Position numbers and translations under genes: made by a program
Source: Phycisphaerales bacterium
GTDB taxonomy: Bacteria; Planctomycetota; Phycisphaerae; Phycisphaerales; SM1A02
Assembly: GCA_044352505.1 (NCBI GenBank)
Contig: JBILDS010000001.1
Span: 1-38,962 of the forward strand
Direction: 5' to 3'
Length of the DNA: 38,962 nt
Shown here: one piece after another, positions 18,613 through 32,382 of the stretch
Layout of the letters: every line of letters starts with the position of its first letter
Position numbering within the stretch: the first letter of the stretch is position 1
Notes under the pieces: generated by a model
Seen by the model: the letters and a program-made list of their open reading frames with translations, nothing else
Told to the model about the DNA's origin: nothing
Database searches by the model: none

Positions 18613-18667
18613 CCGCGAGGCCACAGGAATCGCAGCAATCGTGGGCAAAGCAAACAAGGAGATCAGG

Positions 18668-20689
18668 ATGACGACCCTTCTGGATCGCAGAAGTGCGATG
18701 GTCGAGAAACAACTCAAGGCCCGCGGCATCAAGGATTCCCGGGTTCTTGCTGCCTTCGCATCGGTTCCGCGTGAGCGCTTCGTCTCTGCGCGATACCACG
18801 ATTTGGCCTATGAAGATGCACCGCTTCCGATTGAGGAAGGCCAGACGATCTCGCAGCCATACATCGTTGCACTCATGCTTGAAGCCGCCGGAATCCGGGA
18901 GACGGATCGGGTCCTCGAGGTGGGTGCCGGAAGCGGATACGCCTCAGCGCTGCTCGGAAGGCTTGCACAGAGTGTCTACGCGATCGAATGGCACGAATCG
19001 CTCGCAGCGCTCGCACGGGCACGAATCAAAGCAACAGGGAGCGGCAACGTCGAGTTGCGTTGCGGAGACGGCACCCTTGGTTGGCCTGATGCAGCACCAT
19101 TTGATGTGATCATCGTCTCTGCAGGTGGGCCCGAAGCGCCGAAGAGCCTACTCGATCAACTCCGCATTGGTGGCCGACTTGTGATTCCTGTCGGCAGCGA
19201 ACTGAAGTCGCAGGAACTTCTTCTGATCGAACGAACCGGCGCGCATAACTACGAACGAACCTCACTCGGACGCGTCCAATTCGTTCCGCTTGTGGGATCC
19301 GAGGGCTGGGCCAGCGACGGTGCGCCCCTTTCGGCGCACCGCGCCGAGAGGCCGATTCGCGTGGGTACCGGCGAAGGGGAACGGATTGCGACGCTGATCG
19401 CACAGAACTGCGAACCGTTTGAATCCATTGAGCACGCGAACCTTGATGCACTTGTCTCTCGGATCGGACGGGCGCGCGTGGTTCTCATTGGTGAGTCGAC
19501 CCACGGAACCAGCGAGTTTTACCGTCTCCGCGCCCGGATCACCCAGGCACTCATCGCACGCGCGGGTTTCAATATTGTCGCGCTTGAAGCCGACTGGCCT
19601 GACACCGCTGCCGTGGATCGCGTTGTGCGGAAGCGACCCGCAAGTCCTCTTCGTGAACCCATGTTCTCCCGCTTCCCAACATGGATGTGGCGCAACACCG
19701 ACATGCAGCGCTTTGTCGAGTGGCTCACCCGACACAACGCCTCAACGCCCACAGACACCGCACAAACGAGTTTGCACGGCCTCGATATCTACAGCCTCAA
19801 CAACTCGATCGGTGCGGTGCTCGACTACCTCGATCGTGTGGATCCAACCGCCGCGTTCACCGCGCGCGAAATGTATGCCTGCTTTACACCGTGGGAGCGC
19901 GACCCAGCCACCTACGGTCGCGCCGCAGCCAGCGGTGCGTTGGCCACGTGCGAGCATCAGGCGCTCTCGACGCTCCGGTCGTTGCTCGAGGAACGCCTCC
20001 GATACTCGAAGTTCGATGGAGACTCCTTCTTTGACGCGGCCCGCAATGCCACGGTTGTCCATGAAGCAGAGAAGTACTATCGCGCCATGTATCGCGGCGC
20101 AAGAGAGTCGTGGAACATCCGCGATCGTCACATGTTCGAAACCCTGCTTGCGCTACTCGAACACAGAGGCCCGAACGCGAAGGCCGTTGTTTGGGCGCAC
20201 AATTCGCACGTTGGAAACGCTGCCGCGACGGAACTCGGCATGCACGGCGAAGTGAACATCGGACAGCTCGCACGCGAGCGCTTTGGGGACAGCTGCTACA
20301 GCATCGGATTTGGAACCGATCGCGGAACCGTCGCAGCAGCCACAAACTGGGACGTGCCCATGCAGATCATGGCGGTGCGACCATCGCATCCCGACAGCTA
20401 CGAGCGGCTCTGTCATGATGCCGCGAAGAAAGCCTCTGCATCCAACTTCATGCTACCGCTCCGTGCAGCGCACTCGCTCGGACTGCGCAGTGCGCTGCTC
20501 CAACCACGGCTTGAGCGAGCAATCGGCGTGATCTACCGACCCGACACTGAGCTTGTCAGTCACTACTTTCAGGCCACACTGCCTGCACAGTTCGATGAGT
20601 ACGTGTGGATCGACGAGACGAGCGCGGTCGAGCCGATTGCAACCACAGCGACCGCAGGTGACCCAGAGACGTTCCCGTTCGGACTGTAA
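18668..20689 (+). CDS. Fusion protein: N-terminal protein-L-isoaspartate O-methyltransferase (Pcm) + C-terminal erythromycin-esterase (EreA/ChaN superfamily) domain
   Basis: ATG at 18668 with AAGGAG 6 nt upstream. Pcm motifs: TISQPYIVALMLEAA, VLEVGAGSGYASALL, FDVIIVSAGGPEAP, GGRLVIPVG. From about aa 240, erythromycin-esterase motifs: VVLIGESTHGTSEFY, NIVALEADWPD, FPTWMWRN, LHGLDIYSL, VVWAHNSHVGNA. Confidence 0.85.
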   Translation: MTTLLDRRSAMVEKQLKARGIKDSRVLAAFASVPRERFVSARYHDLAYEDAPLPIEEGQTISQPYIVALMLEAAGIRETDRVLEVGAGSGYASALLGRLAQSVYAIEWHESLAALARARIKATGSGNVELRCGDGTLGWPDAAPFDVIIVSAGGPEAPKSLLDQLRIGGRLVIPVGSELKSQELLLIERTGAHNYERTSLGRVQFVPLVGSEGWASDGAPLSAHRAERPIRVGTGEGERIATLIAQNCEPFESIEHANLDALVSRIGRARVVLIGESTHGTSEFYRLRARITQALIARAGFNIVALEADWPDTAAVDRVVRKRPASPLREPMFSRFPTWMWRNTDMQRFVEWLTRHNASTPTDTAQTSLHGLDIYSLNNSIGAVLDYLDRVDPTAAFTAREMYACFTPWERDPATYGRAAASGALATCEHQALSTLRSLLEERLRYSKFDGDSFFDAARNATVVHEAEKYYRAMYRGARESWNIRDRHMFETLLALLEHRGPNAKAVVWAHNSHVGNAAATELGMHGEVNIGQLARERFGDSCYSIGFGTDRGTVAAATNWDVPMQIMAVRPSHPDSYERLCHDAAKKASASNFMLPLRAAHSLGLRSALLQPRLERAIGVIYRPDTELVSHYFQATLPAQFDEYVWIDETSAVEPIATTATAGDPETFPFGL

Positions 20690-20899: not shown

Positions 20900-21427
20900 T
20901 CAGCGCGCAGCGCCAACCGGCTCAAGTGCCGCCTTGTTCAGTGACTCCGCAATCCGGCTGAGGTTCTCGTCGAAACGCCGCTCTTCCGTCAGCGTCTTGA
21001 GGAGTTCCGCGGCGGCACTGGTGTGACCAAGCAAACTCGCCCACGTGCGTGCGCAGCCGTACCCTGCCATCTCATCGTGCTCTAGGCGTTGCACCACGGC
21101 GATGATCGCTGCATCACGCACGTGCGCATCGATCTTGGTTCGCCCAGCGATCTCGGTGCAGTCTTCGAGCAGCCCCTTTGAGCCATGCGTCTCGAGTTTC
21201 TTTGGCTTGCCACCCAACTCGCCAAAGACGCGATCGAGCCGAGCCACGTGCTGCTTGGTCTCCTCCAGGTGGGCGCGAATTGCTTCTACCAGCTTCGGTG
21301 AAGATGCTGCAGTTGCAAGCTTCGACAGAATCGACTGCGAGTGGGACTCCGCTGCGTGTAGCTCATGCAACTGCTCGAGGAGAAGATCCTTGAGCGAATG
21401 CATGCTAGAGGATGCGATTGGTGCCAT
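20900..21427 (-). CDS. Ferritin-like DUF892 protein (YciE/YciF family stress protein)
   Basis: I take the ATG at 21427 (MAPIASSSMHSLKDLLLEQLHELHAAE). DUF892 hallmarks: LxxLxDLYxAE-type N-terminus, AIRAHLEETKQHVARLDRVF, EHDEMAGYGCARTWA, TLTEE. Confidence 0.8.
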   Translation of the reverse strand: MAPIASSSMHSLKDLLLEQLHELHAAESHSQSILSKLATAASSPKLVEAIRAHLEETKQHVARLDRVFGELGGKPKKLETHGSKGLLEDCTEIAGRTKIDAHVRDAAIIAVVQRLEHDEMAGYGCARTWASLLGHTSAAAELLKTLTEERRFDENLSRIAESLNKAALEPVGAAR

Positions 21428-21591
21428 GATGTTTAGTCCTTTCGAATGGTTCCCTGACAAACACTCCGCCACGCTGACGAACGTGATTGCCGTAGAAGTC
21501 AGGTGTCGACGTTCGTGGTCGTGAAGCAGCCGCTGTCAGAGATGCACACGAAGCGTGCCTTGCGCGGCGCAAACGATGCCGTGCAACCCGA

Positions 21592-22080
21592 TCAGCCTGG
21601 AAGTGGCACGCGCCGCGTCGTGGCCTTCACCTCGACTCGCTTTGCGCGCTGTCCAGGCCTTTTCGCAACGTGGATGGTGACAAGTCCGTTGTCACTCTCC
21701 GCCGAGACTCGTTCAGAGTCGACAGACTCCGGAAGCTCCACGATTCGTCGGAACCCACCGAAGCGACGTTCGCACCGGTAGAAGTCTTCCTGTTCCGTCT
21801 CTTCCTTTTCTTCCTTCTTTCCGGCAATCGAGAGGGTGTTGCCCGTGATGGTGATCTCAAGATCACGCACGGCGATTCCGGGAAGTTCGGTGCGAACCAG
21901 AATTTCATCATCGGTTTCGCTGACATCAATCGGCGGAATCCAACCGTCGATGCGTGCGGCGCCGAGTTCTGTCGACGGCATGTTCGACCCGAAGGTACGG
22001 GAGAGGAGTCGATCCATCTCATCGCGCATGCGGGTGAACTCATCAAGGACTGGGGTTCTTCGGAATAGGCTCATGTTCAT
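21592..22080 (-). CDS. Small heat-shock protein, Hsp20/alpha-crystallin family
   Basis: 162-aa ORF with ATG at 22080 preceded by GGGAGA. Alpha-crystallin core: PPIDVSETDDEILVRTELPGIAVRDLEITITGNTLSIAGKK...ERRFGGFRRIVELP...AESDNGLVTIHV. Confidence 0.9.
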   Translation of the reverse strand: MNMSLFRRTPVLDEFTRMRDEMDRLLSRTFGSNMPSTELGAARIDGWIPPIDVSETDDEILVRTELPGIAVRDLEITITGNTLSIAGKKEEKEETEQEDFYRCERRFGGFRRIVELPESVDSERVSAESDNGLVTIHVAKRPGQRAKRVEVKATTRRVPLPG

Positions 22081-22113
22081 GTTTCTCCCTTTCGTGTCTT
22101 GTGTGTGTGGCTC

Positions 22114-22134
22114 GCGAATCGCAGGTTGATTCGC
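22114..22134. promoter_or_regulatory. 7-N7-7 inverted repeat (GCGAATC-N7-GATTCGC) in the hsp20 leader/promoter region
   Basis: Read directly from the sequence, 34-54 nt upstream of the hsp20 ATG. Function unknown. Confidence 0.3.
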
Positions 22135-22228
22135 AATTGGTTTCGGTCACGTGCGTGCGTCAAGCACGGAACGTTGATGCGGCACACGAATGCCGTCATA
22201 CCGATCGTTTCGTGAGAGATGTTCGGAA

Positions 22229-22906
22229 TCAGGTGTACGGATCGACAACGAGTCGGTCATCCACGCGGCGTACGCCGGTGGCGAAGCCAACCACGCGATC
22301 AATGGTGTCCTTCTCGACCCACGATCGCACGCGACCCGTGAGCATCACAACGCCGTCTTTGACTTGGACGCCGATGCGGCGCGCCTCACGCTCGGCCTGG
22401 CGCTCAAGTGCCTCTTCAATGTCGGCCTTGATGCGACTTGAGTCGACCGCTTTGGCCATGACGGAGATCTGATTGATCACGCCCCGAACGCCCGTGAGTC
22501 CACGAACAACACGCTCTGCGTCGGCGCGCTGTGACCAAGTTGGTACCACGCCTTCCAACGTGACGATACCGAGCGAAACAGTCGATGTGATCTTCTCGTC
22601 GGGAACAAAGGCGTCCCACTCGAGCGCGTCACGCACTCCGCGCGCGATATCAATATCGGTGGGCGCGCCCACGCCGGCGACCTTGACTTGCAGTTCATCC
22701 ACGACATCGAGCACACCATGCACGCGATGCGCGGCTTCACGCGAGGCGATCTTCTTCGCGTAGACGTCAACGCTCCCGACGAGGGTCACGATGCCATCCT
22801 TGATCTGTACGCCGACATCCGTCTCGTCGACGCGGGAATCCCACTTGAGTTCATTCAACACATCGGTCTTGATCTGTGAATCGCTCTTGATGATTGCCGT
22901 TGTCAT
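22229..22906 (-). CDS. Triple BON-domain protein (OsmY-like)
   Basis: 225-aa ORF with ATG at 22906 preceded by AAGGAGG. Three repeats of the BON pattern (DVGVQIKDGIVTLVGSV...A..V.GV..V.N.L, SLGIVTLEGVV..., GVQVKDGVVMLTGRV...). Confidence 0.85.
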   Translation of the reverse strand: MTTAIIKSDSQIKTDVLNELKWDSRVDETDVGVQIKDGIVTLVGSVDVYAKKIASREAAHRVHGVLDVVDELQVKVAGVGAPTDIDIARGVRDALEWDAFVPDEKITSTVSLGIVTLEGVVPTWSQRADAERVVRGLTGVRGVINQISVMAKAVDSSRIKADIEEALERQAEREARRIGVQVKDGVVMLTGRVRSWVEKDTIDRVVGFATGVRRVDDRLVVDPYT

Positions 22907-23022
22907 GCTCTTCCTCCTTCTTTGGCATTTGAACTCTGGAGCCGCGCTCCAGACACTTCATTTGGGCAGATCGACGCACCCGCGACTACGGGGAGTGTTC
23001 CGCATTCATGGAGCAGCACAGA

Positions 23023-23967
23023 TCACGTGATGATGGCTGCGCGCACACGCTTCTCAGGAGCGACTGGTACCGCCCGTGCGGTCAGCACCGCGCACCGTGC
23101 GCGATGGAGCACTCGCTCCGCGGTCGATCCAAGCAAGAGACGCTCGAGAATCGAGACGCCATGTCGCCCAAGCGCAACCATGTCGGCGTGGAGCAGATCC
23201 GCGCGCTCCGCAACCGCGCGAAAGACATCCCCGCGCGCAATCTCTGCAGTCGTTTCTGCGCCGAGACGCCGAAACTCGGCAGCGATCGGCTCAAGTTGCT
23301 CGCGCGCGTCGTCCTCTTCGGCAACAAGCTGATCTCTTGGAATCACGGGCGACTCAACCGCTTCGATCACGTGAGGCGGAAGCACCACATGGAGCAGCGC
23401 CACGCGCGGCTGCTCACGCGAGCGGAGCGCAACCACGCGCGCTGCGGCCACAGCGGCTTCGGCATCGTGGGCAAAGTCCGTCGCCACCAAGATCCGCGGT
23501 CGTGCAGGCGGCTCATCGTTCTCTCGCACCACGAGTACAGGACACTCTGCGTGCCGCAGCACGCGATCTGCGACACTTCCCAGAAGAACACGACGAAGCG
23601 GACCGAGGCCACGGTTCCCCATCACGATGAATGGGTTCGGCGTGCGCTGCGCAACATCCTCAATCACCATGGATGGCTCACCAATACGACACTCGCGCAC
23701 CACCTCGATTCCGGCAGAGACCGCCCGCGCACACGCGCCGTGGAGTCGCTCGAGTCCGCGCGCCTCAAGCATGGCCACCAATTCCGAGCTTTCACCCAGT
23801 GGTGTGGGCTCAACGGCATGAACCGCAATCAGACGACCCGGTCCACGCGCAGCAAGTTCCTCTGCCCAACGCAACGCAGCCAACGCGGGCTTTGAGAAGT
23901 CGATTGGAACGATAAAGTTGACGGTGTGATGCTCACCGACCGCCGTGGGTGGCTCTTGTTCCCGCAT
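23023..23967 (-). CDS. Tandem universal stress protein (two UspA domains)
   Basis: I take the ATG at 23967 preceded by GGAGA. Two Usp modules, each ending in the ATP-binding-type motif (MGNRGLGPLRRVLLGSVADRVLRHAECPVLVV and LGRHGVSILERLLLGSTAERVLHRARCAVLT). Confidence 0.85.
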   Translation of the reverse strand: MREQEPPTAVGEHHTVNFIVPIDFSKPALAALRWAEELAARGPGRLIAVHAVEPTPLGESSELVAMLEARGLERLHGACARAVSAGIEVVRECRIGEPSMVIEDVAQRTPNPFIVMGNRGLGPLRRVLLGSVADRVLRHAECPVLVVRENDEPPARPRILVATDFAHDAEAAVAAARVVALRSREQPRVALLHVVLPPHVIEAVESPVIPRDQLVAEEDDAREQLEPIAAEFRRLGAETTAEIARGDVFRAVAERADLLHADMVALGRHGVSILERLLLGSTAERVLHRARCAVLTARAVPVAPEKRVRAAIIT

Positions 23968-24117
23968 GCAATTCTCCAAACAATGACGCTTGACGCCGGT
24001 GCGCGCGAGGATGCCTGAACACCAGCTGTGTCCTGCGACCATTGATAGTTTCGCACCTGCGAGAGAGGCATGACTACGGGAACTTGCCTCAATCGGGTGT
24101 GCAAGATCGACGCGCCT

Positions 24118-24146
24118 CGGGGATCTATCAGACAGAACCTAGGTTC
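24118..24146. repeat. Second copy of the recurrent motif (cggggatctatCAGACAGAACCT), abutting the palindrome GAACCTAGGTTC
   Basis: 21/23 identity to 4063-4085. Lies in the divergent usp / DUF883 intergenic region. Confidence 0.6.
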
Positions 24147-24317
24147 GCCACGCGCTTCTGTCACGCCAACTGCGAATACTTCCCTCTGGCAACAGCGCAT
24201 GTGACCGCCATTGATTGGTTGCATGCCGGCTGGGCAACCATCGAATGCTGAACGAAGCGCACGGCGCGCTTCGCACCGCGACTGACCACGTGCCCAGCGT
24301 GCAATGGGAGAACCGAC

Positions 24318-24608
24318 ATGGATCGCAACAGTCAAATCGGAATGGAAGATTCACTTGACCTCCAACGAGAGCTCGACCGGCTGCGCGCCGATCTCCGGCA
24401 ATTGCGCAACGACCTCTCCGGTCTCGGAATCGATGGCGTGAGAGCCGCCCGTGCAGGGCTACAAGAGACTGCGCGAACCGCTGCCGCAAAGGGCAAAGCG
24501 GCAGCGGAAGTCGCCGAGAAGCAGATTGCAGCACATCCCTTTCTGACCGTCGCGTCGTGCCTCGCCATCGGTGTGCTGCTTGGCCTTCGGATGAACCGGC
24601 GCGATTAG
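24318..24608 (+). CDS. DUF883 family protein (YqjD/ElaB-like membrane-anchored stress protein)
   Basis: 96-aa ORF with ATG at 24318 preceded by GGGAGA. Coiled-coil N-terminus (LQRELDRLRADLRQLRNDL) and a C-terminal anchor (HPFLTVASCLAIGVLLGL), as in YqjD/ElaB. Confidence 0.75.
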   Translation: MDRNSQIGMEDSLDLQRELDRLRADLRQLRNDLSGLGIDGVRAARAGLQETARTAAAKGKAAAEVAEKQIAAHPFLTVASCLAIGVLLGLRMNRRD

Positions 24609-24623
24609 GTCCTGTCTGACGGA
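24607..24623. repeat. Third copy of the recurrent motif (AGGTCCTGTCTGACGGA)
   Basis: 16/17 identity to the reverse complement of 4069-4085. Overlaps the DUF883 stop codon and the Shine-Dalgarno region of the next gene. Confidence 0.5.
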
Positions 24624-24630
24624 GACTCGA

Positions 24631-24909
24631 ATGGGAATCATGCAGCAACTGCTTGCCGATATCACCGCGGCACTTGATTGGGAGTTCCGCGCCCTTCGTA
24701 TGCGCGCACTTCGGATTGCATGGGGAGCCGCGCTTGCCGTGGTTTCTGCAATGCTCGTTCTCACTTCGGTGCTTCTCTTCTTGGGGGCGGTGTACCTACA
24801 GGTTGAGACCGCCATGGGCGCTGTGGCGGGACTTCTGGCCACCGCAGCCTTCGCCGTGCTCTGCGCACTTGGGGCAGGACTGGCGGCGAAGACCCTAGCG
24901 GAGCGGTAG
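24631..24909 (+). CDS. Small two-TM membrane protein, YqjE/DUF1469-like ('phage holin family' annotation class)
   Basis: 92-aa ORF with ATG at 24631 preceded by GGAGA. Two hydrophobic helices after an amphipathic N-terminus. Sits directly after a YqjD-like gene, mirroring E. coli yqjD-yqjE. Family assignment rests on size, topology and synteny only. Confidence 0.55.
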   Translation: MGIMQQLLADITAALDWEFRALRMRALRIAWGAALAVVSAMLVLTSVLLFLGAVYLQVETAMGAVAGLLATAAFAVLCALGAGLAAKTLAER

Positions 24910-24930
24910 CGAACGAGGGTTGGATGCCGG

Positions 24931-25100
24931 GATTCGGACTTCCGCCCTCGATTCAAACTCTCGATTCAAACTCTCGATTCAAACTCTCGATTCAAGCCCT
25001 CGATTCAGGCTCTCGATTCAAGCCCTGAATTCAAGCCCTGAATTCAAGCCCTGAATTCAAGCCCTGAATTCAAGCCCTGGATTCGGATCCCGGATCCGGG
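24931..25100. repeat. 13-bp-period tandem repeat array, about 12 units in three sub-variants
   Basis: gattcaaactctc x3 (24950-24988); then gattcaagccctc, gattcaggctctc and gattcaagccct (24989-25026); then gaattcaagccct x4 (25027-25078). Degenerate ggattcgga-type units flank both ends. Non-coding period (13 is not a multiple of 3). Confidence 0.95.
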
Positions 25101-25177
25101 CAAAGGACCGCCAATCTCCGTCACAGTCCCTTGGGGGCGACGAGGGGGTCAGGACTGGCATCTCCCACCCCCGGGAC

Positions 25178-25200
25178 GAGGTTCTGTCAGGCGGAACCTC
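25178..25200. repeat. Degenerate palindromic copy of the recurrent motif (GAGGTTCtgtcaggcgGAACCTC)
   Basis: AGGTTCTGTCAG differs at one position from the 12-mer. 7-N9-7 palindrome located 146 nt upstream of the SET gene ATG. Confidence 0.45.
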
Positions 25201-25345
25201 GTGCTCGGATTGTCGAACGCGACACCTGCACATTCGAAGTGCGATCGCGTACGCTGCCGCGCTGCCATGGGCCGACCCATGGCGGCGACGCGGATCTCCG
25301 ACACCGATCCCGAACGTCGCGAGTCGTCCTGCGTCTCCCCCATCC

Positions 25346-25837
25346 ATGCCTGCCACAACTCAATCGTTTCCCTGCGCCGTGCGCCAAACAACCACGGGCG
25401 TTGGCGTCTTCGCAACACACGACATCATCGAAGGCGGAATCGTGCTCGAAATCAACGGCACGATCCAGCAGCATCCAACGCGCTACTCGATTCAGATCAG
25501 TCTCAACGAGCACATTGAGTGCCATGAGGTACTCAGCGTTGACGAGATGCGCGTGCGCTTCCCGTGGCGGTTCTTGAATCACTGCTGCGAACCAAACGCT
25601 GCGATTGTCGGGCGCACACTTGTCGCGCGCCGACTCATCCGTGCAGGCGAGCAGGTCACCTTCGACTACACCACAACCGAAGCTGCCATGGCGGAACCAT
25701 TCCGCTGCGGCTGCGGAGCCGAGCGATGCCTCGGCGAGGTTCGCGGGTTCCTTGCGCTCTCTCCCGCCGAGCAGCGGGCGCGCGCTGAGATTGTTGCGCC
25801 GCACATCAAGTCGTTCCTTCCAAAGACGAACGCGTGA
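25346..25837 (+). CDS. SET-domain protein (putative lysine N-methyltransferase)
   Basis: 163-aa ORF. SET signatures: GVGVFA, RFLNHCCEPN, EQVTFDY. Post-SET-like Cys cluster FRCGCGAERC. Its TGA stop overlaps the GTG start of the downstream synthetase. Confidence 0.85.
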   Translation: MPATTQSFPCAVRQTTTGVGVFATHDIIEGGIVLEINGTIQQHPTRYSIQISLNEHIECHEVLSVDEMRVRFPWRFLNHCCEPNAAIVGRTLVARRLIRAGEQVTFDYTTTEAAMAEPFRCGCGAERCLGEVRGFLALSPAEQRARAEIVAPHIKSFLPKTNA

Positions 25838-28800
25838 ACTCCGCCGCGAATGCGCGGCTGGTTGTGATGCTCGCCGCCCCCCCAGTCACCGTGCTCGACC
25901 TCTTCGACCGCGCCTGTGCGGCCGAACGCGATGCATGTGCGCTTGATGTGCCCGGCGTTGCGCAGCTTTCCTACCGAGAACTCGACGAGCGCGCGCAGCG
26001 CGTCGCGACCTGCGTGGCGCCGCATGCAGCGCGCGATGCTGTTGTCGCGATCGCACTTCCACGCACCGATCCATGGCTCTATGCCGCGATTCTCGGTGTG
26101 ATGCGTTCGGGCGCAGCGTATGTCGCCATCGACCCCGCGTTTCCCTCGCGACAAGCCGTAGCGATTCTGAGAGATGCAGGCGCAGTTGCACTGATTGCGA
26201 ATCCCGCGCGCGCCGCAGAACTTGCTGCGGAAGGCGCACGCGTTGCACTTCTGTCGCCTGAGCACATTGCAACATCGAACGTGCACAACGCCGTCGCAGT
26301 GCGAAATGCTCCATCGCCCGACGACCTCGCCTATGTGATCTACACGTCAGGTACAACGGGAAAGCCCAAGGGTGTAGAGATCGAGCACCGCTCGCTCCTC
26401 AACCTCGTCGAGGGTGATCTTGCCGAATTCGGCCTTGCAGCCGGCGACCGCGTGGCGCAGGGTTCGAGCGCAAGCTACGACTCGAGCGTCGAGGAGATGT
26501 GGCTTGCGTGGGCGGCGGGTGCCGCCGTTGTCGTGATGGACGATGAGACGGCACGACTTGGGCCAGACCTGCTGCCATGGCTTGTGCGCGAGCGCATCAG
26601 CGTGCTCTGCCCACCGCCAACCTTGCTGCGCACGCTCGGCTGTAGCGACCCCGAACGCGCGTTGCCTGCGATTCGTCTCCTCTATGTGGGCGGAGAGGCG
26701 CTCGCGCCCGACGTTGCGTCGCTTTGGTCGCGCGGTCGTAGACTCGAGAACGGTTACGGCCCGACCGAATGCACCGTGACTTGTCTGCGCGCCACGGTGC
26801 GCGCGGGTGAAGCGGTCACGATTGGTCGCGCAATTCCAGGTTCGTTCGCAGCGGTCGTCGACCCGGACGACGCGAACCTGCGCGAGATCATCGACGAAAC
26901 CCAGGGCGAGCTCGTGGTCGGCGGCGCGTCGCTTGCGCGCGGCTATCGCGGCCAGCCCGAGACCACCGCTGCGCGCTTCGTCGAGCACCCGACGCTTGGC
27001 CGCGTGTATCGCACGGGCGATCTCGTCCACCGCGATTCTCGCGGCGAGTTCCACTACCACGGTCGCATCGACGCGCAGGTGAAGCTGCGCGGCTATCGCA
27101 TCGAACTCGGCGCGGTCGAAGCAGCGCTGGCGGCGCAGCCCGGCGTACTTGACGCGGCCTGTACGGTGGAAGGCGAAGGAGCGCAGCGAAGGCTTGTGGC
27201 GCACGTGGTGGCGCACGCAGGGCACGCGCTCAACAGAGATGTGCTGCGCGCAGCACTCGCGCGGGAGCTGCCGCCCTATATGGTTCCGTCGGCGATCGCA
27301 GCAATCGAGCGCATCCCACGCACGGTCGGCGGAAAGATCGACCGGCGCGCGCTTCCTGCAATCGACACGCGGCGCGAGCCCGACCATGCCACAGCGCATG
27401 CACACCCATCGACCGAGACAGAGCTCCAACTGGCGCGCGCGTTCGCGGCTGCGCTTGGGAGAGATGACACTGTTTCGATCGACGCGGATCTATTCGACGA
27501 CCTCGGCTTCGACTCGCTCACGATCGCGATCGCGATCTCGCGCCTCCGCGCCGCGCACGCGGAGTCTGCCGCGACCGTGCGCACGGCCTACGAGCACCGC
27601 ACGGTACGCGCGCTGGCGGCTGCACTCGACGCGGCGCGCGCCGTCGCCACGCACACGGCACCAGACCGCGCTCACGCCCACCCCGTGACGGGCACTTCGC
27701 GGCCGATCCTTGTCACCACGCTTCAAGCCGCATTCCTCGCGGCGGCCCTTGTCGTCGTGTCGCAGTTCCTGTGGATTCCCGCTGCTGTCGACGCACTGGA
27801 AAGCGCATTCGACAGCGGCATCCACAGCGCACTGCTGCTTGCTCTCTCCGCCGCGGTCGTCACCGCCGGATACCCGCTCGTCGCGGTCGCCTTCGGCGTC
27901 GCAGCGAAGTGGATCGTCCTCGGTCGTGTGAAACCGGGCCGTGTCCGCGCATGGAGCCTCACGCACCTTCGACAGTGGATCGCGGTGCGCTGCGTGGCAC
28001 CGATTCCGTGGGAGACACTGAAGGTCCTCGACCTCGCGCCTACGGTGCTCAGGCTTCTCGGGGCACAGGTTGGCCGCGGCGTCCACATCCATCGCGGCGC
28101 CCGCTTCAACGACGGCGGTTGGGATCTGATCACGCTCGAAAGTGGCGCGACCGTCGGACAGGACGCGTGCCTTCGCGCCGTAGAACTGACAGCGGGCACG
28201 CTGGTCTTCGATCGCGTGACGGTGCGCAGAAACGCCACGCTCGAAACACGCGCCGGCATGTCGCCCGGCGCGGAACTTGGCGAAGGCAGCATCCTGCGCG
28301 CACTCTCGAGCCTTGGGCACGGTGAGGTGCACGAGCACGCGATCCTCGACGGCGTACCCGCACGGCGCATTGCACGCGCACCTGAGCCGCCCACGGTCGC
28401 AGCCCCGCCGCACGCCGCGCTGCGACTTATCGCGGCGCTCGCGCTCATTGCGTTGCTCGCCACGGCGCTCGTCATTCCGTGGACCGCGGCGCTCTGGCTC
28501 TTCGGCGTGTCGCCCGATGCACTGGATCTCTCGCCCGCCAACCTCGCGCGCCTCGCTGGTGCCACCATCGCAGCCGCTGCTGGCGCAGTGCTCATACAAG
28601 CAGCTCTCGTGCGCGCGCTCGGGCCAGCGCCGCGCGGAGCGTTTTCGCTGCACGGCCTCGCGCCGCTGCGGCTTTCACTTCAATCGATGCTCGTCGAAGG
28701 CGCGGGCAAATGGCTCTCGGGCACCATCATGTGGCCGATGTGGCTCAACCTCGCGGGCGCCCGCATCGGAAAATGCTGCGAGATTTCCACCGTCACCGAT

Positions 28801-29802
28801 GTGGTGCCATCGACAGTCGCGATCGACGAAGACACCTTCTTCGCGGATGGAATCTATCTCGGCGGACCCGCGCTCCACGCCGGAACAGCCACGATCGAGC
28901 CGGTCGAGCTCGGGCGCTCCTGCTTCGTCGGCAACCACGCGGTTCTCCCCTCTGGCTCACGGCTCGCGCCCGAGACGCTTGTTGGCATCTCGACGCGCGG
29001 AAGTGGCCTTCCCGACGAAGCGGGCGCGTCGTGGTTCGGCCACCCCGTGTTTCGCCTGCCGCGACGCGAGGTCGTCGACGCCCCGCGCGAACTCACGCAC
29101 GATCCGTCGCTTGTTCGCCGCATCAACCGCTGGGTGTGGGAGCTTGCGCGCTTCGCACTGCCGCTCGGCCCGATCATTGTGGCGCTCCTCTGGTTCCGCG
29201 CGATGGAAGCCGCAAGCGCCACGCAGACGCCCGCGCTCTTCCGCCTCGTCACGCTTCCTCTCGGCGTCCTCGCGGCGCTCGCCTCGCTCGCGGCAGCCCT
29301 CCTCGCGATGAAGTGGATCCTCGTCGGGCGCGTCAAGCCGGGCACGCATCCCCTGTGGAGTTGCTGGTGCAGCCGTTGGGACTTCCTCTACGTCGCGTGG
29401 GGCATGTGGGCCGCGAAACCGCTCGCAGCGCTCGAAGGCACGCTCCTCCTCGTTGTCTATCTGCGCGCGATGGGGTGCCGCATCGGACGGCGCGCACTTC
29501 TCGGCGCAGGCTTCTCGCATGTGGTCGACCCGGACATGCTGCGATTCGGCAACGATGTCACGGTGCAGGCGCTCTTTCAGGCCCATACCTTTGAGGATCG
29601 CGTGCTCAAGATCGACCATGTCCACATCCGTGACGGCGCGACGGTGGGCGCGAACACGGTGATCCTCTATGGCGCGGACATTGGTACTGGTGCCGTCGTC
29701 GCACCGCACTCCGTGGTGATGAAGCGGGAGTTGCTCCTTCCCCGCACGCGCTACGAAGGTGTACCGACCGAACCTGTCGGCACGGTCACACCCGCACACT
29801 GA
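25834..29802 (+). CDS. Pls-type single-module non-ribosomal peptide synthetase (A-PCP, six TM helices, three tandem soluble domains); predicted homopoly(amino acid) synthetase
   Basis: 1322-aa ORF with GTG start at 25834. A-domain motifs: YVIYTSGTTGKPKG, NGYGPTE, YRTGDL, GRIDAQVKLRGYRIELGAVE, GGKIDRRAL. PCP motif LGFDSL (Ser561, nt 27514-27516). Three pairs of hydrophobic helices each precede a soluble ~150-aa segment, and the motif KWIVLGRVKPG / KWILVGRVKPG repeats. No HHxxxDG condensation motif and no thioesterase motif seen. Confidence 0.85.
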   Translation: MNSAANARLVVMLAAPPVTVLDLFDRACAAERDACALDVPGVAQLSYRELDERAQRVATCVAPHAARDAVVAIALPRTDPWLYAAILGVMRSGAAYVAIDPAFPSRQAVAILRDAGAVALIANPARAAELAAEGARVALLSPEHIATSNVHNAVAVRNAPSPDDLAYVIYTSGTTGKPKGVEIEHRSLLNLVEGDLAEFGLAAGDRVAQGSSASYDSSVEEMWLAWAAGAAVVVMDDETARLGPDLLPWLVRERISVLCPPPTLLRTLGCSDPERALPAIRLLYVGGEALAPDVASLWSRGRRLENGYGPTECTVTCLRATVRAGEAVTIGRAIPGSFAAVVDPDDANLREIIDETQGELVVGGASLARGYRGQPETTAARFVEHPTLGRVYRTGDLVHRDSRGEFHYHGRIDAQVKLRGYRIELGAVEAALAAQPGVLDAACTVEGEGAQRRLVAHVVAHAGHALNRDVLRAALARELPPYMVPSAIAAIERIPRTVGGKIDRRALPAIDTRREPDHATAHAHPSTETELQLARAFAAALGRDDTVSIDADLFDDLGFDSLTIAIAISRLRAAHAESAATVRTAYEHRTVRALAAALDAARAVATHTAPDRAHAHPVTGTSRPILVTTLQAAFLAAALVVVSQFLWIPAAVDALESAFDSGIHSALLLALSAAVVTAGYPLVAVAFGVAAKWIVLGRVKPGRVRAWSLTHLRQWIAVRCVAPIPWETLKVLDLAPTVLRLLGAQVGRGVHIHRGARFNDGGWDLITLESGATVGQDACLRAVELTAGTLVFDRVTVRRNATLETRAGMSPGAELGEGSILRALSSLGHGEVHEHAILDGVPARRIARAPEPPTVAAPPHAALRLIAALALIALLATALVIPWTAALWLFGVSPDALDLSPANLARLAGATIAAAAGAVLIQAALVRALGPAPRGAFSLHGLAPLRLSLQSMLVEGAGKWLSGTIMWPMWLNLAGARIGKCCEISTVTDVVPSTVAIDEDTFFADGIYLGGPALHAGTATIEPVELGRSCFVGNHAVLPSGSRLAPETLVGISTRGSGLPDEAGASWFGHPVFRLPRREVVDAPRELTHDPSLVRRINRWVWELARFALPLGPIIVALLWFRAMEAASATQTPALFRLVTLPLGVLAALASLAAALLAMKWILVGRVKPGTHPLWSCWCSRWDFLYVAWGMWAAKPLAALEGTLLLVVYLRAMGCRIGRRALLGAGFSHVVDPDMLRFGNDVTVQALFQAHTFEDRVLKIDHVHIRDGATVGANTVILYGADIGTGAVVAPHSVVMKRELLLPRTRYEGVPTEPVGTVTPAH

Positions 29803-32029
29803 ACGCGCCGCTGCGCAGCCGCAGGCTGTTCGCCACCACGCTCACGCTCGAGAGCGCCATCGCGGCGCTCGCAGCGATCGGCGGAAGCATCCAGCCCGTC
29901 CACGGGTAGAGCGCACCCGCCGCGAGCGGAATGAGGACGAGGTTGTAGCCGAACGCCCACGCGAGGTTCTGGCGAATCACGCGTAGCGTGGCGCGAGAGA
30001 GCGCGATCACCTCGGGAACGCGCCGAAGGTCGTCGGAGACGAGCAGAATGTCGGCGCTTGTCTTCGCGAAATCGGTGCCGCTCGCCATTGCGATCCCGGG
30101 CCGCGCTGCGGCGAGCGCGGCCGCGTCGTTGATGCCGTCGCCGACGAACGCCGCGCCGCGCGGCTCTTCGACGAGTCGCGAGACGAGTTCGGCCTTGCCC
30201 GCAGGCGTCATCGACGCATGCACGGAAGCCGCGTCGATGCGAAGCGCCTCCGCCACCGCCGCGGCAGGGCGCTCCGCGTCGCCCGTCACGAGCAACGGCT
30301 CGACGCAGAGCGCGCGCAGCGCGTCGACCGCCTCCCGCGCATCGGCACGCACGCGGTCCTCGAGCGCGATCGAGCCGACGAACGCGCCGTCGGCCGCGAC
30401 GAAGACGCGCGTGGCGTTCGATGCGCCGGCGTGCGCACCCACCGTCACGCCGCATTCGCGTATCCATGCCGCGTTTCCCACCTCGACTGAATGTGAAAGC
30501 ACGGTTGCATGCACGCCCTTCCCGGCGAACGCTGTGAACGACGATGGCTCCTCGACATGGATCCCGCGCGCGCGCGCAGCGTCAACGATGCCGCGCGCGA
30601 CCGCGTGCTCGCTGCGGATCTCGGCGGCCGCCGCCAGCCCGAGCAACGCCTCCTCGCTCCAGCCATGCGCGGGCGCGACGGCGGTCACCGCGGGGCGCCC
30701 TTCCGTGAGTGTGCCCGTCTTGTCGAACGCAATACGCCCGACCCGCGCGAGGAGCTCGAACGCGTTTGCGCGGCGGAAGAGGACGCCGAGCGCGGCCGCG
30801 CGCCCCGACGCGACCATGATCGCCACGGGTGTCGCGAGGCCGAGCGCGCACGGGCACGCGACCACGAGCACGCTGACGAGCGCTTCGACGGCGCGCGCGT
30901 GGCGAATGTCGGCGGGCGCAAGCAGCAGCCACGCCGCGAACGCGCCGAGCGCGACCACAAGCACGACGGGAACGAACACGGCGGCAACGCGGTCCGCCGT
31001 GCGCGCGATCGACGCCTTGGTCGACTGCGCCTCATCGACGAGCCCCGCGATCCGAGCGAGCATCGTCTCGTCTGCGCCACAGCCCGCCTCGATTTCGAGC
31101 GCGCCGACCGTGTTCAGCGACCCTGCGAAGACGCGGTCGCCCGTTCGGCGCAGGCGCGGCATCGGCTCGCCCGTCAGAAGCGACTCGTCGACCTCGCTCT
31201 CGCCGCGTATCACGGTGCCGTCGATCGGAATGCGCTCGCCCGGCCGCACGACGACATGCATGCCAACCGTGATCTCGGCGGCCGTGATCTCCCGTTCGGC
31301 GCCATCGGCGCGAATACGCGCCATCGGAACGGCCGCAGTCGACAGCGCGCGCAACGCGTCGCCTGCGCGTGCCGTCGCGCGCGCCTCGAGTAGGCGGCCG
31401 AATAAGACGAACACGAGGATCACGGCCGCGGCCTCGAAGGTGAGGGCGTGTCCCGCGTGTTGCGAGTGCCCCGCGAAGAGCGCCCACGTGCTCGATGCGA
31501 AGGCCACGCTCGTTCCGAGCGAGACAAGCGTGTTCATGTCGGCGTCGAAGGTCTTCAGCCGCGCGAGCGCCGCCGCGTGGATCGGCCAGCCGCACCAGAG
31601 ATAGACGGGCGTGGCGAGCGCAAGCTGCACCCACGGCATCGCGGGGCCATCGAGCGCGGGAATGGCGCCGTGCGACATGGCGATTACAACCAGCGGAAGC
31701 GACAGCACGGCGCCGACCACCACGCGCAGCCGAAGCAACCGCGCCTCGGCCACCTCGCGTGCGGCGCGCACCGCGGGGTCGCGCGTGATGTCGAGTGCGA
31801 ATCCCGCGCGCTCAACCGCCCGCGCAAGGCCGGCGAGGTCGACCGCACTGCGGTCGAAGTCGATGCGCGCACGCTTCGTCGCAAACGACACGCTCGCCGC
31901 GCGCACACCCTCGACCGCGCACAGCGCGCGCTCGACCTTCGACGCGCACGCGGCGCAATGCATGCGGTCGACAGGCAGCACGCGCACGGTGGCGTCGTGA
32001 ATCTTCGCAGCTGCCGCCGCGCTCGCCAT
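29786..32029 (-). CDS. copA: Copper-translocating P1B-type ATPase
   Basis: HMA domain (MHCAACASKVERAL), TGE, CPC motif (VACPCALGLATP), DKTGTLT, GDGINDA. I take the ATG at 32029, 5 nt after the thioredoxin stop. The ORF-track start at 32107 would overlap that gene. Confidence 0.9.
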   Translation of the reverse strand: MASAAAAAKIHDATVRVLPVDRMHCAACASKVERALCAVEGVRAASVSFATKRARIDFDRSAVDLAGLARAVERAGFALDITRDPAVRAAREVAEARLLRLRVVVGAVLSLPLVVIAMSHGAIPALDGPAMPWVQLALATPVYLWCGWPIHAAALARLKTFDADMNTLVSLGTSVAFASSTWALFAGHSQHAGHALTFEAAAVILVFVLFGRLLEARATARAGDALRALSTAAVPMARIRADGAEREITAAEITVGMHVVVRPGERIPIDGTVIRGESEVDESLLTGEPMPRLRRTGDRVFAGSLNTVGALEIEAGCGADETMLARIAGLVDEAQSTKASIARTADRVAAVFVPVVLVVALGAFAAWLLLAPADIRHARAVEALVSVLVVACPCALGLATPVAIMVASGRAAALGVLFRRANAFELLARVGRIAFDKTGTLTEGRPAVTAVAPAHGWSEEALLGLAAAAEIRSEHAVARGIVDAARARGIHVEEPSSFTAFAGKGVHATVLSHSVEVGNAAWIRECGVTVGAHAGASNATRVFVAADGAFVGSIALEDRVRADAREAVDALRALCVEPLLVTGDAERPAAAVAEALRIDAASVHASMTPAGKAELVSRLVEEPRGAAFVGDGINDAAALAAARPGIAMASGTDFAKTSADILLVSDDLRRVPEVIALSRATLRVIRQNLAWAFGYNLVLIPLAAGALYPWTGWMLPPIAASAAMALSSVSVVANSLRLRSGAFSVRV

Positions 32030-32034
32030 CGCGC

Positions 32035-32382
32035 TCAGCCGCCGATCTTTCCGACATGCTGCTCGAGCCGTGCCTTCACGGCGGCGCGCGGCATGAAGCC
32101 CGTCCACGAGTCGATCACCTCGCCGTTCTTCATCAAGAAGAGCGCTGGAATGCCGCGCACGCCGAACGCAGCGGCGACCTCGCCCTCAGCGTCGACATCG
32201 CAGAACGCCACGCGCACTTTGCCCTCGAGCTCGGGTGCAAGCGCCGCGAGCTCTGGCTTGAGCATGCGGCACGGTGGGCACCACGACGCCCAGAAGTCGA
32301 CAAGGACAGGCACGGACGATTGGGCGACTTCCTTGTCGAAGTTCGCGCTGGTGGCATGGAACGTGTTGGGAGCGTCAGACAT
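32035..32382 (-). CDS. Thioredoxin with non-canonical WCPPC active site
   Basis: Internal ATG at 32382 gives 115 aa: NFDKEV...VPVLVDFWASWCPPCRML...VRGIPALFLMKNGEV. Typical thioredoxin fold length. The ORF-track upstream extension is not thioredoxin-like. Confidence 0.85.
   Translation of the reverse strand: MSDAPNTFHATSANFDKEVAQSSVPVLVDFWASWCPPCRMLKPELAALAPELEGKVRVAFCDVDAEGEVAAAFGVRGIPALFLMKNGEVIDSWTGFMPRAAVKARLEQHVGKIGG

Follow-up and report, generated by a model that had tools for sequence, protein, structure and literature searches.

Analysis of a 38,962-nucleotide stretch of DNA from a Phycisphaerales bacterium (contig JBILDS010000001.1; hereafter the window) revealed a gene for a small SET-domain methyltransferase whose stop codon overlaps the start of a gene for a nonribosomal peptide synthetase (NRPS) of the Pls/PosA type. 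Pls is the ε-poly-L-lysine synthetase, whose product is a food preservative, and PosA is the δ-poly-L-ornithine synthetase; Pls-type synthetases also make related antimicrobial polycations, their products arise in a membrane-embedded module and are secreted, and to our knowledge only a handful of their monomers are known. We favor, with confidence and reservation about evenly balanced, the reading that the SET protein is an accessory tailoring methyltransferase acting on a single amino-acid unit, free or carrier-bound, which would give a methylated polycation; this reading draws on sequence comparison and on analogy with BurB, its nearest characterized relative. Pls/PosA-type synthetases and BurB-type methyltransferases are each known, and their combination is undescribed in the literature searched: no paper linking SET domains with Pls or cationic homo-polyamino acid (CHPA) synthetases was found in the open-access PMC and bioRxiv literature, although such absence is not proof. 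This agrees with a previous sequence-only reading of the window, whose author knew of no characterized poly-lysine-type cluster with a SET gene.

A SET gene coupled to a synthetase gene

The features of the pair, all on the + strand, are as follows (positions in the window; aa, amino acids).

25346-25837, +: SET-domain methyltransferase gene, BurB-like, stand-alone, 163 aa (open reading frame and translation, Pfam, family alignment, AlphaFold2 model, Foldseek)
25397-25405, +: GxG motif of the SET protein for S-adenosylmethionine (SAM), aa 18-20
25577-25597, +: NHCCEPN of the SET protein, aa 78-84
25661-25669, +: FDY of the SET protein, aa 106-108
25706-25729, +: post-SET CxCx4C, aa 121-128
25834-25837, +: GTGA junction, in which the synthetase GTG (25834-25836) overlaps the SET TGA (25835-25837)
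25834-29802, +: Pls/PosA-type single-module NRPS of the DSECYGGVT(K) class, 1322 aa (Pfam, NCBIfam, Stachelhaus code)
25903-27336, +: adenylation (A) domain, aa 24-501 (AMP-binding, AMP-binding_C; TIGR01733 at 367 bits, above cut-off)
27430-27627, +: thiolation (T, carrier) domain, aa 533-598 (PP-binding, 39 bits)
27700-29799, +: membrane-embedded region, putatively polymerising (hydropathy, TIGR02353, Hexapep at aa 1262-1295)

The SET open reading frame (ORF) runs from the ATG at 25346 to the TGA at 25835-25837 (163 codons). The four motifs by which the sequence-only reading had recognized a SET protein of this length are all present in the translation, namely TGVGVFA (aa 17-23), WRFLNHCCEPN (aa 74-84), VTFDY (aa 104-108) and FRCGCGAERC (aa 119-128). 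The overlap that it described between the SET TGA and the synthetase GTG is likewise there, since bases 25834-25837 read GTGA, and the GTG at 25834 starts a 1322-codon ORF that ends at 29802. Because the closest relatives keep an overlapping start at the equivalent junction (GCATGA, i.e., a synthetase ATG overlapping the SET TGA) and a publicly deposited gene call with 100% identity to the window synthetase is likewise 1322 aa long, this GTG is very probably the genuine start of the synthetase. No AGGAGG-like element was found in the C-rich 20 bases preceding the SET ATG (cgtctcccccatcc), consistent with the earlier remark that the SET gene has no evident Shine-Dalgarno sequence. The two genes are predicted to share one mRNA with start/stop-coupled translation; for this proposal, too, already made from the window alone, the GTGA overlap is joined by the conserved NTGA junctions and the spacing of the pair in relatives described below.

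The small protein is a SET-fold methyltransferase related to BurB

The Pfam SET profile (PF00856) matched aa 18-108 of the small protein with 41.6 bits against a cut-off of 22.4, and an AlphaFold2 model built on the family alignment reached a pLDDT of 92 and a pTM of 0.85. Foldseek comparison of this model with the PDB returned 311 matches (E <= 0.001), of which the 50 listed were SET-domain structures without exception. Homologues of the family numbered 78 (clusters), with E down to 1e-104 and most of them 152-211 aa long. Across 22 aligned homologues, the pseudoknot motif NHxCEPN, the active-site Tyr (FDY) and the four-Cys post-SET zinc site (C81, C121, C123 and C128) were invariant, the invariant residues being H79, C81, P83, N84, Y108, C121, C123 and C128; the GxG SAM motif, G18-V-G20 in the window protein, was retained by most homologues. 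By profile, alignment and model, the protein is thus identified as a genuine SET-fold, SAM-type methyltransferase with predicted intact SAM and catalytic motifs, and the fold first recognized by eye is confirmed. It is a minimal, single-domain SET core with no additional substrate-recognition domain and is roughly neutral by residue count (17 acidic versus 16 basic).

The best match in the PDB was BurB, both by family profile (E 1e-16, 63.8 bits, residues 13-145; 9e-14 for KMT2A) and by fold (Foldseek E 3.4e-10, template-modeling score 0.65, 26% identity). BurB from Burkholderia thailandensis and MSMT from Streptomyces mobaraensis are SET-domain methionine S-methyltransferases (PDB 9L4T and 9L4V; PMC12542666). 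BurB is a stand-alone SET protein of 172 aa that S-methylates free methionine and thereby supplies a Burkholderia thiotemplate pathway; its pocket, which closes on SAM binding, holds a single free amino acid, whose head group is bound by the main chain at R70/T73 and V130/M132 (PMC12542666). The window protein resembles BurB as a small single-domain SET protein (163 aa versus 172 aa) and shares with it the GxG, NHxCxPN and Y-x-[ST]-T-E...F-x-C-x-C motifs and the four-Cys site, such that G18-V-G20, H79 and Y108 align to G43-A-G45, H93 and Y124 of BurB. The BurB head-group segments R70-T73 and V130-M132 align, in a comparison of sequences only, with the best-conserved motifs of the window's family, PTRYSIQ and TTTEAAMAEPF. 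Both genes adjoin a thiotemplate (carrier-protein) enzyme, which in the case of BurB uses an amino-acid-derived cationic building block. On the other hand, the SAM-contacting R133 and H138 of BurB correspond to E117 and G122 in the window protein, and the partner of the latter is a Pls-type polymerising NRPS instead of the polyketide synthase-NRPS served by BurB.

The eukaryotic histone methyltransferases KMT2/MLL, SETD2, NSD and ASH1L share the fold, the SAM-binding motifs and the post-SET zinc cluster with the window protein but score below BurB. Unlike them, it lacks AWS, pre-SET and reader domains, is bacterial and is operon-coupled to an amino-acid polymerase. We describe the protein as cytosolic, stand-alone and BurB-like. 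As the nearest characterized relative is a methionine S-methyltransferase, the methyl acceptor need not be a lysine nitrogen, and the initial assignment as a lysine N-methyltransferase was too narrow.

The synthetase belongs to an orphan specificity class

As in Pls and PosA, the A and T domains of the synthetase precede a region in which six transmembrane helices are interspersed with three tandem C domains of the hexapeptide-repeat type. Hydropathy placed the transmembrane-helix pairs at aa 623-699, 855-930 and 1101-1167, and behind each pair lies a soluble domain of this type, ~155-170 aa in length (C1, C2 and C3). Pfam revealed only AMP-binding, AMP-binding_C, PP-binding and Hexapep in the protein, with no classical condensation or thioesterase domain (PF00668, PF00975). 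The NCBIfam model of the Pls/PosA family (TIGR02353) matched aa 638-1311 with 329.9 bits; since this is under the curated cut-off of 423.1, the enzyme is assigned to a divergent Pls/PosA subfamily, not to standard Pls. Its C-terminal region is 27-34% identical to those of Lys- and Orn-type enzymes; self-BLASTP of this region gave no internal repeats, and tblastn against related loci gave weak cross-matches among C domains.

The Stachelhaus code, read against GrsA landmarks, is D235, S236, E239, C278, Y299, G301, G322, V330, T331 and K517. It keeps the Asp at position 1 and the Glu at position 3 that are found in Pls and PosA (Asp235 and Glu239 in the window) and that are the rule for cationic α-amino acids (Patel et al. 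2023, PMC10522769). In other respects, DSECYGGVT(K) differs from the codes for Lys (DAESIGTVV-type) and Orn (DMEHNGTVSK) and is identical to that of the orphan CHPA homologues of Patel et al. 2023, in which DSECYGGVTK was reported from Bdellovibrionales OFZ39577.1 and Novosphingobium WP_072382105.1 (PMC10522769). An A domain with this code, Bdello_A, was inactive on Lys, Orn, 2,4-diaminobutyrate (Dab) and 2,3-diaminopropionate (Dap) and showed modest activity with L-Arg, and the authors proposed "a larger analog" as its substrate (PMC10522769). The label of poly-lysine-type synthetase, given in the sequence-only reading, hence does not fit the window enzyme. The word "methyltransferase" occurs 0 times in that article, and the Sphingomonas-type members of the class that we sampled are without a SET gene. 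The operon structure also differs: posA forms a single-gene operon (PMC10522769), whereas synthetases of the DSEC class often have a translationally coupled SET gene. A search with the Bdello_A protein, rebuilt by optical character recognition from a supplementary gene sequence, gave generic A-domain matches, the best 39% identical.

Compared with the Lys and Orn codes, the amine-hydrogen-bonding Thr of PosA is replaced by Gly, the final pocket Ser is lost and a Tyr is gained; a pocket of this composition would suit a cation of greater bulk with fewer hydrogen bonds to donate. From these changes and the assay of Bdello_A, an unusual monomer is likely.

Such a pocket bears on one alternative, namely that the SET protein works as BurB does, with S-methylmethionine, a sulfonium, formed from methionine, or a methyl group placed on some other nucleophile that is not nitrogen; the cationic product would then serve either as the monomer or as a separate metabolite. 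In favor of this, no solved relative is closer than BurB, which in Burkholderia supplies a thiotemplate assembly line, and a sulfonium may fit the Glu239/Tyr299 pocket, which lacks hydrogen-bond partners, as readily as a methylammonium would. However, the identity to BurB is only 26% and the SET-I insert differs; genes for BurI-, BurD- and BurE-type partners, which make dimethylsulfoniopropionate (aminotransferase, decarboxylase and dehydrogenase), were absent from the window and from a census of flanking genes (44 downstream and 55 upstream). In addition, the sole nucleophile of S-methylmethionine is its α-amine, and code position 2, which tracks side-chain length (PMC10522769), is a Ser and suggests a side chain of Lys length. 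We therefore regard S-methylation as the least probable of the alternatives considered here.

The SET-synthetase pair recurs across phyla in one specificity class

The distribution of the pair was analyzed in a SET scan of one genome per species, covering at least 551 relatives, in which the best 80 loci were examined. In 62 of these 80 SET-seeded loci, a synthetase with the A-T-C-terminal architecture lies immediately downstream of the SET gene on the same strand, so that the adjacency first noticed in the window extends to relatives in at least five phyla: Planctomycetota (mostly Phycisphaerales), Actinomycetota (Actinoplanes, Actinocrispum, Pseudonocardia and other genera), Armatimonadota, Acidobacteriota and Verrucomicrobiota. 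The closest loci come from metagenome-assembled genomes (MAGs) of Phycisphaerales and other Planctomycetota, many from freshwater lakes, and their synthetases are 73-88% identical to that of the window. Spacing was tight throughout: in the 64 pairs of SET and synthetase genes, the two genes overlap or abut in 40 and are separated by 1-30 nt in 18; no gap exceeds 100 nt, and a 4-nt NTGA overlap occurs in ~20. SET and synthetase divergences were strongly correlated (Mantel r = 0.81; 0 of 999 permutations as high).

DSEC[Y/L/V/I][G/V]GV is the code of nearly all SET-linked synthetases in which the A domain can be read. Homologues of the synthetase number more than 7,300; among the best 120, 119 carry a DSEC-class code, that is, all those in which the code is readable. 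No SET gene was found near ~13 Pls-type control loci with Lys, Orn, β-Lys or Dap/Dab codes. These controls were taken from a metagenome scan seeded on the synthetase N-terminus, which picks up generic A-domain motifs and in which only 6 of 80 loci were of the DSEC class. SET adjacency thus appears limited to one A-domain specificity class.

Two of the loci carry unexpected labels, "uncultured Klebsiella sp." (L005, CAYMSD010000096.1) and "Chitinophaga pinensis" (L041, CALQCP020000130.1), and the SET-synthetase genes of both cluster tightly with those of Phycisphaerales/Planctomycetota, which suggests a mislabeled taxon or a binning error.

Variants of the cassette and other partners of the SET clade

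No third gene is conserved across phyla, and no monomer-biosynthesis genes were found, in the window and the flank census; for this reason the SET gene and the synthetase gene are taken together as a self-contained cassette. Additional genes do occur within single lineages. A conserved class-I methyltransferase of 277 aa (Methyltransf_11/25) adjoins the SET gene in 14 loci (L007-L017 and L165-L167, by tblastn). In 13 of the 14 it lies directly upstream, forming an operon of methyltransferase, SET and synthetase genes (e.g., L167:1558-2391); in L017 it is found on the other strand, downstream. Neither the window nor L001-L006 has this gene. Since the loci bearing this gene form the stem that gives rise to the window's subclade, the lineage of the window seems to have lost it. 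Comparison of the class-I methyltransferase with known proteins gave only generic Rossmann-methyltransferase similarity and no informative characterized relative.

Five SET-linked synthetases (L018, L023, L024, L044 and L075) are fused at the C-terminus to a multi-pass membrane domain of ~340 aa, which matches the transmembrane acyltransferase-like families DUF418, HGSNAT_cat and Acyl_transf_3 (e.g., L023:14251-15510). One further locus has two tandem SET genes upstream of the synthetase (L009:9230-10432), the second of them 37% identical to the window SET protein.

The SET clade also occurs with other ligases. In Rhodothermales MAGs (L037:602-2645, L058:5289-7494 and L071:8506-10507), an ATP-grasp enzyme of the D-Ala-D-Ala-ligase type carries a fused SET domain, and a further SET protein of the family, this one stand-alone, comes next; these loci have no Pls-type synthetase. 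A GH3-family amido synthetase precedes the fusion in L058 and L071. In Mycobacterium sp. PS03-16 (L059:9917-15432), a 178-aa SET ORF leads into an ORF of 1707 aa, in which a MurF-like Mur ligase is joined to PGA_cap (CapA-like) and to a TupA-like ATP-grasp domain. By these gene arrangements, the clade appears repeatedly linked to amide-bond-forming enzymes of unrelated folds, i.e., Pls-NRPS, ATP-grasp and MurF-like.

This range of partners is informative with regard to a second alternative, in which the SET protein is a protein-lysine methyltransferase acting on the synthetase or on another protein, for regulation or self-protection. Most characterized SET enzymes act on protein lysines, KMT2, SETD2 and NSD follow close behind BurB in sequence and fold, and tight translational coupling would suit a 1:1 enzyme-substrate pair or complex. 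However, three unrelated types of ligase are coupled to the clade, which suggests that a small-molecule chemistry, not a protein target, is what they have in common; no residue, lysine included, is conserved in SET-positive synthetases and missing in SET-negative ones; and no substrate-recognition domain extends past the minimal SET core. Methylation of a protein is accordingly very unlikely, and for synthetase modification and self-protection, both offered in the sequence-only reading, nothing was found in support.

A single amino-acid unit as the favored substrate

In the reading that we favor, the SET protein would be a dedicated but accessory tailoring enzyme that methylates, once or several times, the cationic α-amino-acid unit that the synthetase uses. 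Methylation would most probably take place on the single unit, either as the free amino acid, as with BurB, or as the unit loaded on the carrier domain. The A domain would adenylate this unit and the T domain carry it, and the three membrane-embedded C domains would couple units iteratively to a diffusible acceptor, extruding a methylated cationic oligomer or polymer. Lineages without the SET gene would then make an unmethylated product, and those with the class-I methyltransferase, a second SET protein or the fused acyltransferase-like domain would make further decorated ones. Action on a single unit is preferred because of the relationship to BurB, because of the minimal SET architecture, because a cytosolic SET protein stands opposite a membrane-extruding polymerase, and because the clade is repeatedly fused or linked to ligases that use free amino acids.

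A more specific version of this reading supposes that a free basic amino acid is exhaustively methylated by the SET protein, alone or with the class-I methyltransferase, to a quaternary ammonium (e.g., N-ε-trimethyl-lysine) or a sulfonium. The Glu/Tyr pocket would recognize this cation, and the Pls module would polymerize it into a permanently charged, protease-resistant "polyquat"; the SET clade would in general supply methylated monomers to Pls-NRPS, ATP-grasp and MurF/CapB-like polymerases. We consider this version quite unlikely.

Several results weigh against the favored reading. The likeness to BurB is modest (26% identity), the window's family has an 11-residue insertion in SET-I, and BurB leads the KMT2-type and histone SET proteins by ~10 bits only. 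When DSEC loci were sampled through the synthetase instead of the SET protein (n=16), the SET gene was present in 6 (Gandjariella thermophila, L086, L087, L165, L166 and L167) and absent in 10 (three Sphingomonas-type and two Blastocatellia-type loci, L088, L089, L090, L169 and L170). An unlinked SET copy is unlikely on the large contigs of SET-less loci (3.06 Mb, 504 kb and 247 kb), since none of these is named as the longest contig of any of the 78 SET-family clusters. SET-less synthetases carry the same specificity code as SET-linked ones, and no alignment column separates the 55 SET-positive from the 8 SET-negative full-length synthetases. With the same pocket and no separating column, the A domain therefore shows no apparent adaptation to a SET-made monomer, which is the main counter-evidence. 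Of the SET-less loci, those with a position in the tree fall into small clades lying among SET-positive ones. The SET gene is best described, from this distribution, as a class-specific but facultative partner of the DSEC synthetase. The two-gene system of the sequence-only reading is not borne out as an obligatory one, given the 10 of 16 synthetase-seeded loci without a SET gene and the sister lineages with three genes.

A facultative SET gene and indistinguishable synthetases are also what decoration after assembly would give. In this alternative, an unmethylated cationic oligomer or polymer is first made from an ordinary metabolite, and its free amino groups or its terminus are then methylated by the SET protein, in some lineages together with the class-I methyltransferase, either ahead of export or in the course of it. 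The variable partners (class-I methyltransferase, tandem SET proteins and fused DUF418/HGSNAT-like domain) are typical of tailoring modules, and SET enzymes classically methylate lysine amines inside polymers, namely proteins. Nevertheless, BurB binds a single free amino acid in a SAM-sealed pocket, some relatives of the SET protein form fusions with ATP-grasp ligases, whose substrates are free amino acids, and the protein itself is near charge-neutral with no added domain to grip a polycation. Access of a cytosolic SET protein to a product made in a membrane-embedded module would be limited as well. Tailoring at the polymer level is for these reasons unlikely, and methylation of the single unit remains the reading that we prefer.

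The DSECYGGVT class is very large and spans many phyla, and its substrate was left open in 2023. A coupled BurB-like SET protein, sometimes joined by a second methyltransferase, provides a concrete lead on the substrate of this orphan class. If methylation of the unit is true, a new family of methylated cationic biopolymers is predicted, and the newly recognized idea of bacterial SET proteins as small-molecule enzymes is extended.

Upstream region and genomic surroundings

The region upstream of the SET gene contains one further feature.

24910-25345, +: non-coding region upstream of the SET gene, with a tandem array (sequence, Tandem Repeats Finder)

The promoter of the SET operon must lie within this region; no sigma-70-like promoter was found upstream of the SET gene. 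Tandem Repeats Finder located an array with a 13-nt period at 24944-25084, ~260 nt upstream of the SET start, in which units of CTCGATTCAAACT (x5.8) grade into ATTCAAGCCCTGA (x7.3) with 89-91% matches. The array may mark the scar of a deletion, act in regulation or serve as a contingency locus. In sister lineages, the class-I methyltransferase gene stands directly upstream of the SET gene. A riboswitch or RNA leader upstream of the SET gene was considered and rejected, as no Rfam family matched at gathering score in the window; between 24000 and 25400, the only matches were sub-threshold and miRNA-like, on or beside the tandem repeat.

Upstream of the operon, a stress-type cluster occupies 20900-24909, with DUF892, Hsp20, triple-BON and tandem Usp genes on the opposite strand and two small + strand ORFs, one ElaB/DUF883-like by eye (24318-24608) and one encoding a membrane protein (24631-24909). 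On the other side, a convergent heavy-metal P-type ATPase gene (HMA + E1-E2 + HAD; 29786-32107, - strand) overlaps the 3' end of the synthetase gene by 17 nt when its ORF is counted from the first start codon. In the flank census, a P-type ATPase occurred in 6 loci and a DUF1275 gene in 5, and related Planctomycetota loci keep the ATPase together with DUF1275 upstream; both were rejected as a conserved third gene because they are lineage-local, and this neighborhood reflects lineage synteny, not a functional link. Farther upstream, 18641-20689 (+) encodes a 682-aa fusion of PCMT (protein-L-isoaspartate O-methyltransferase) with an erythromycin-esterase-family domain.

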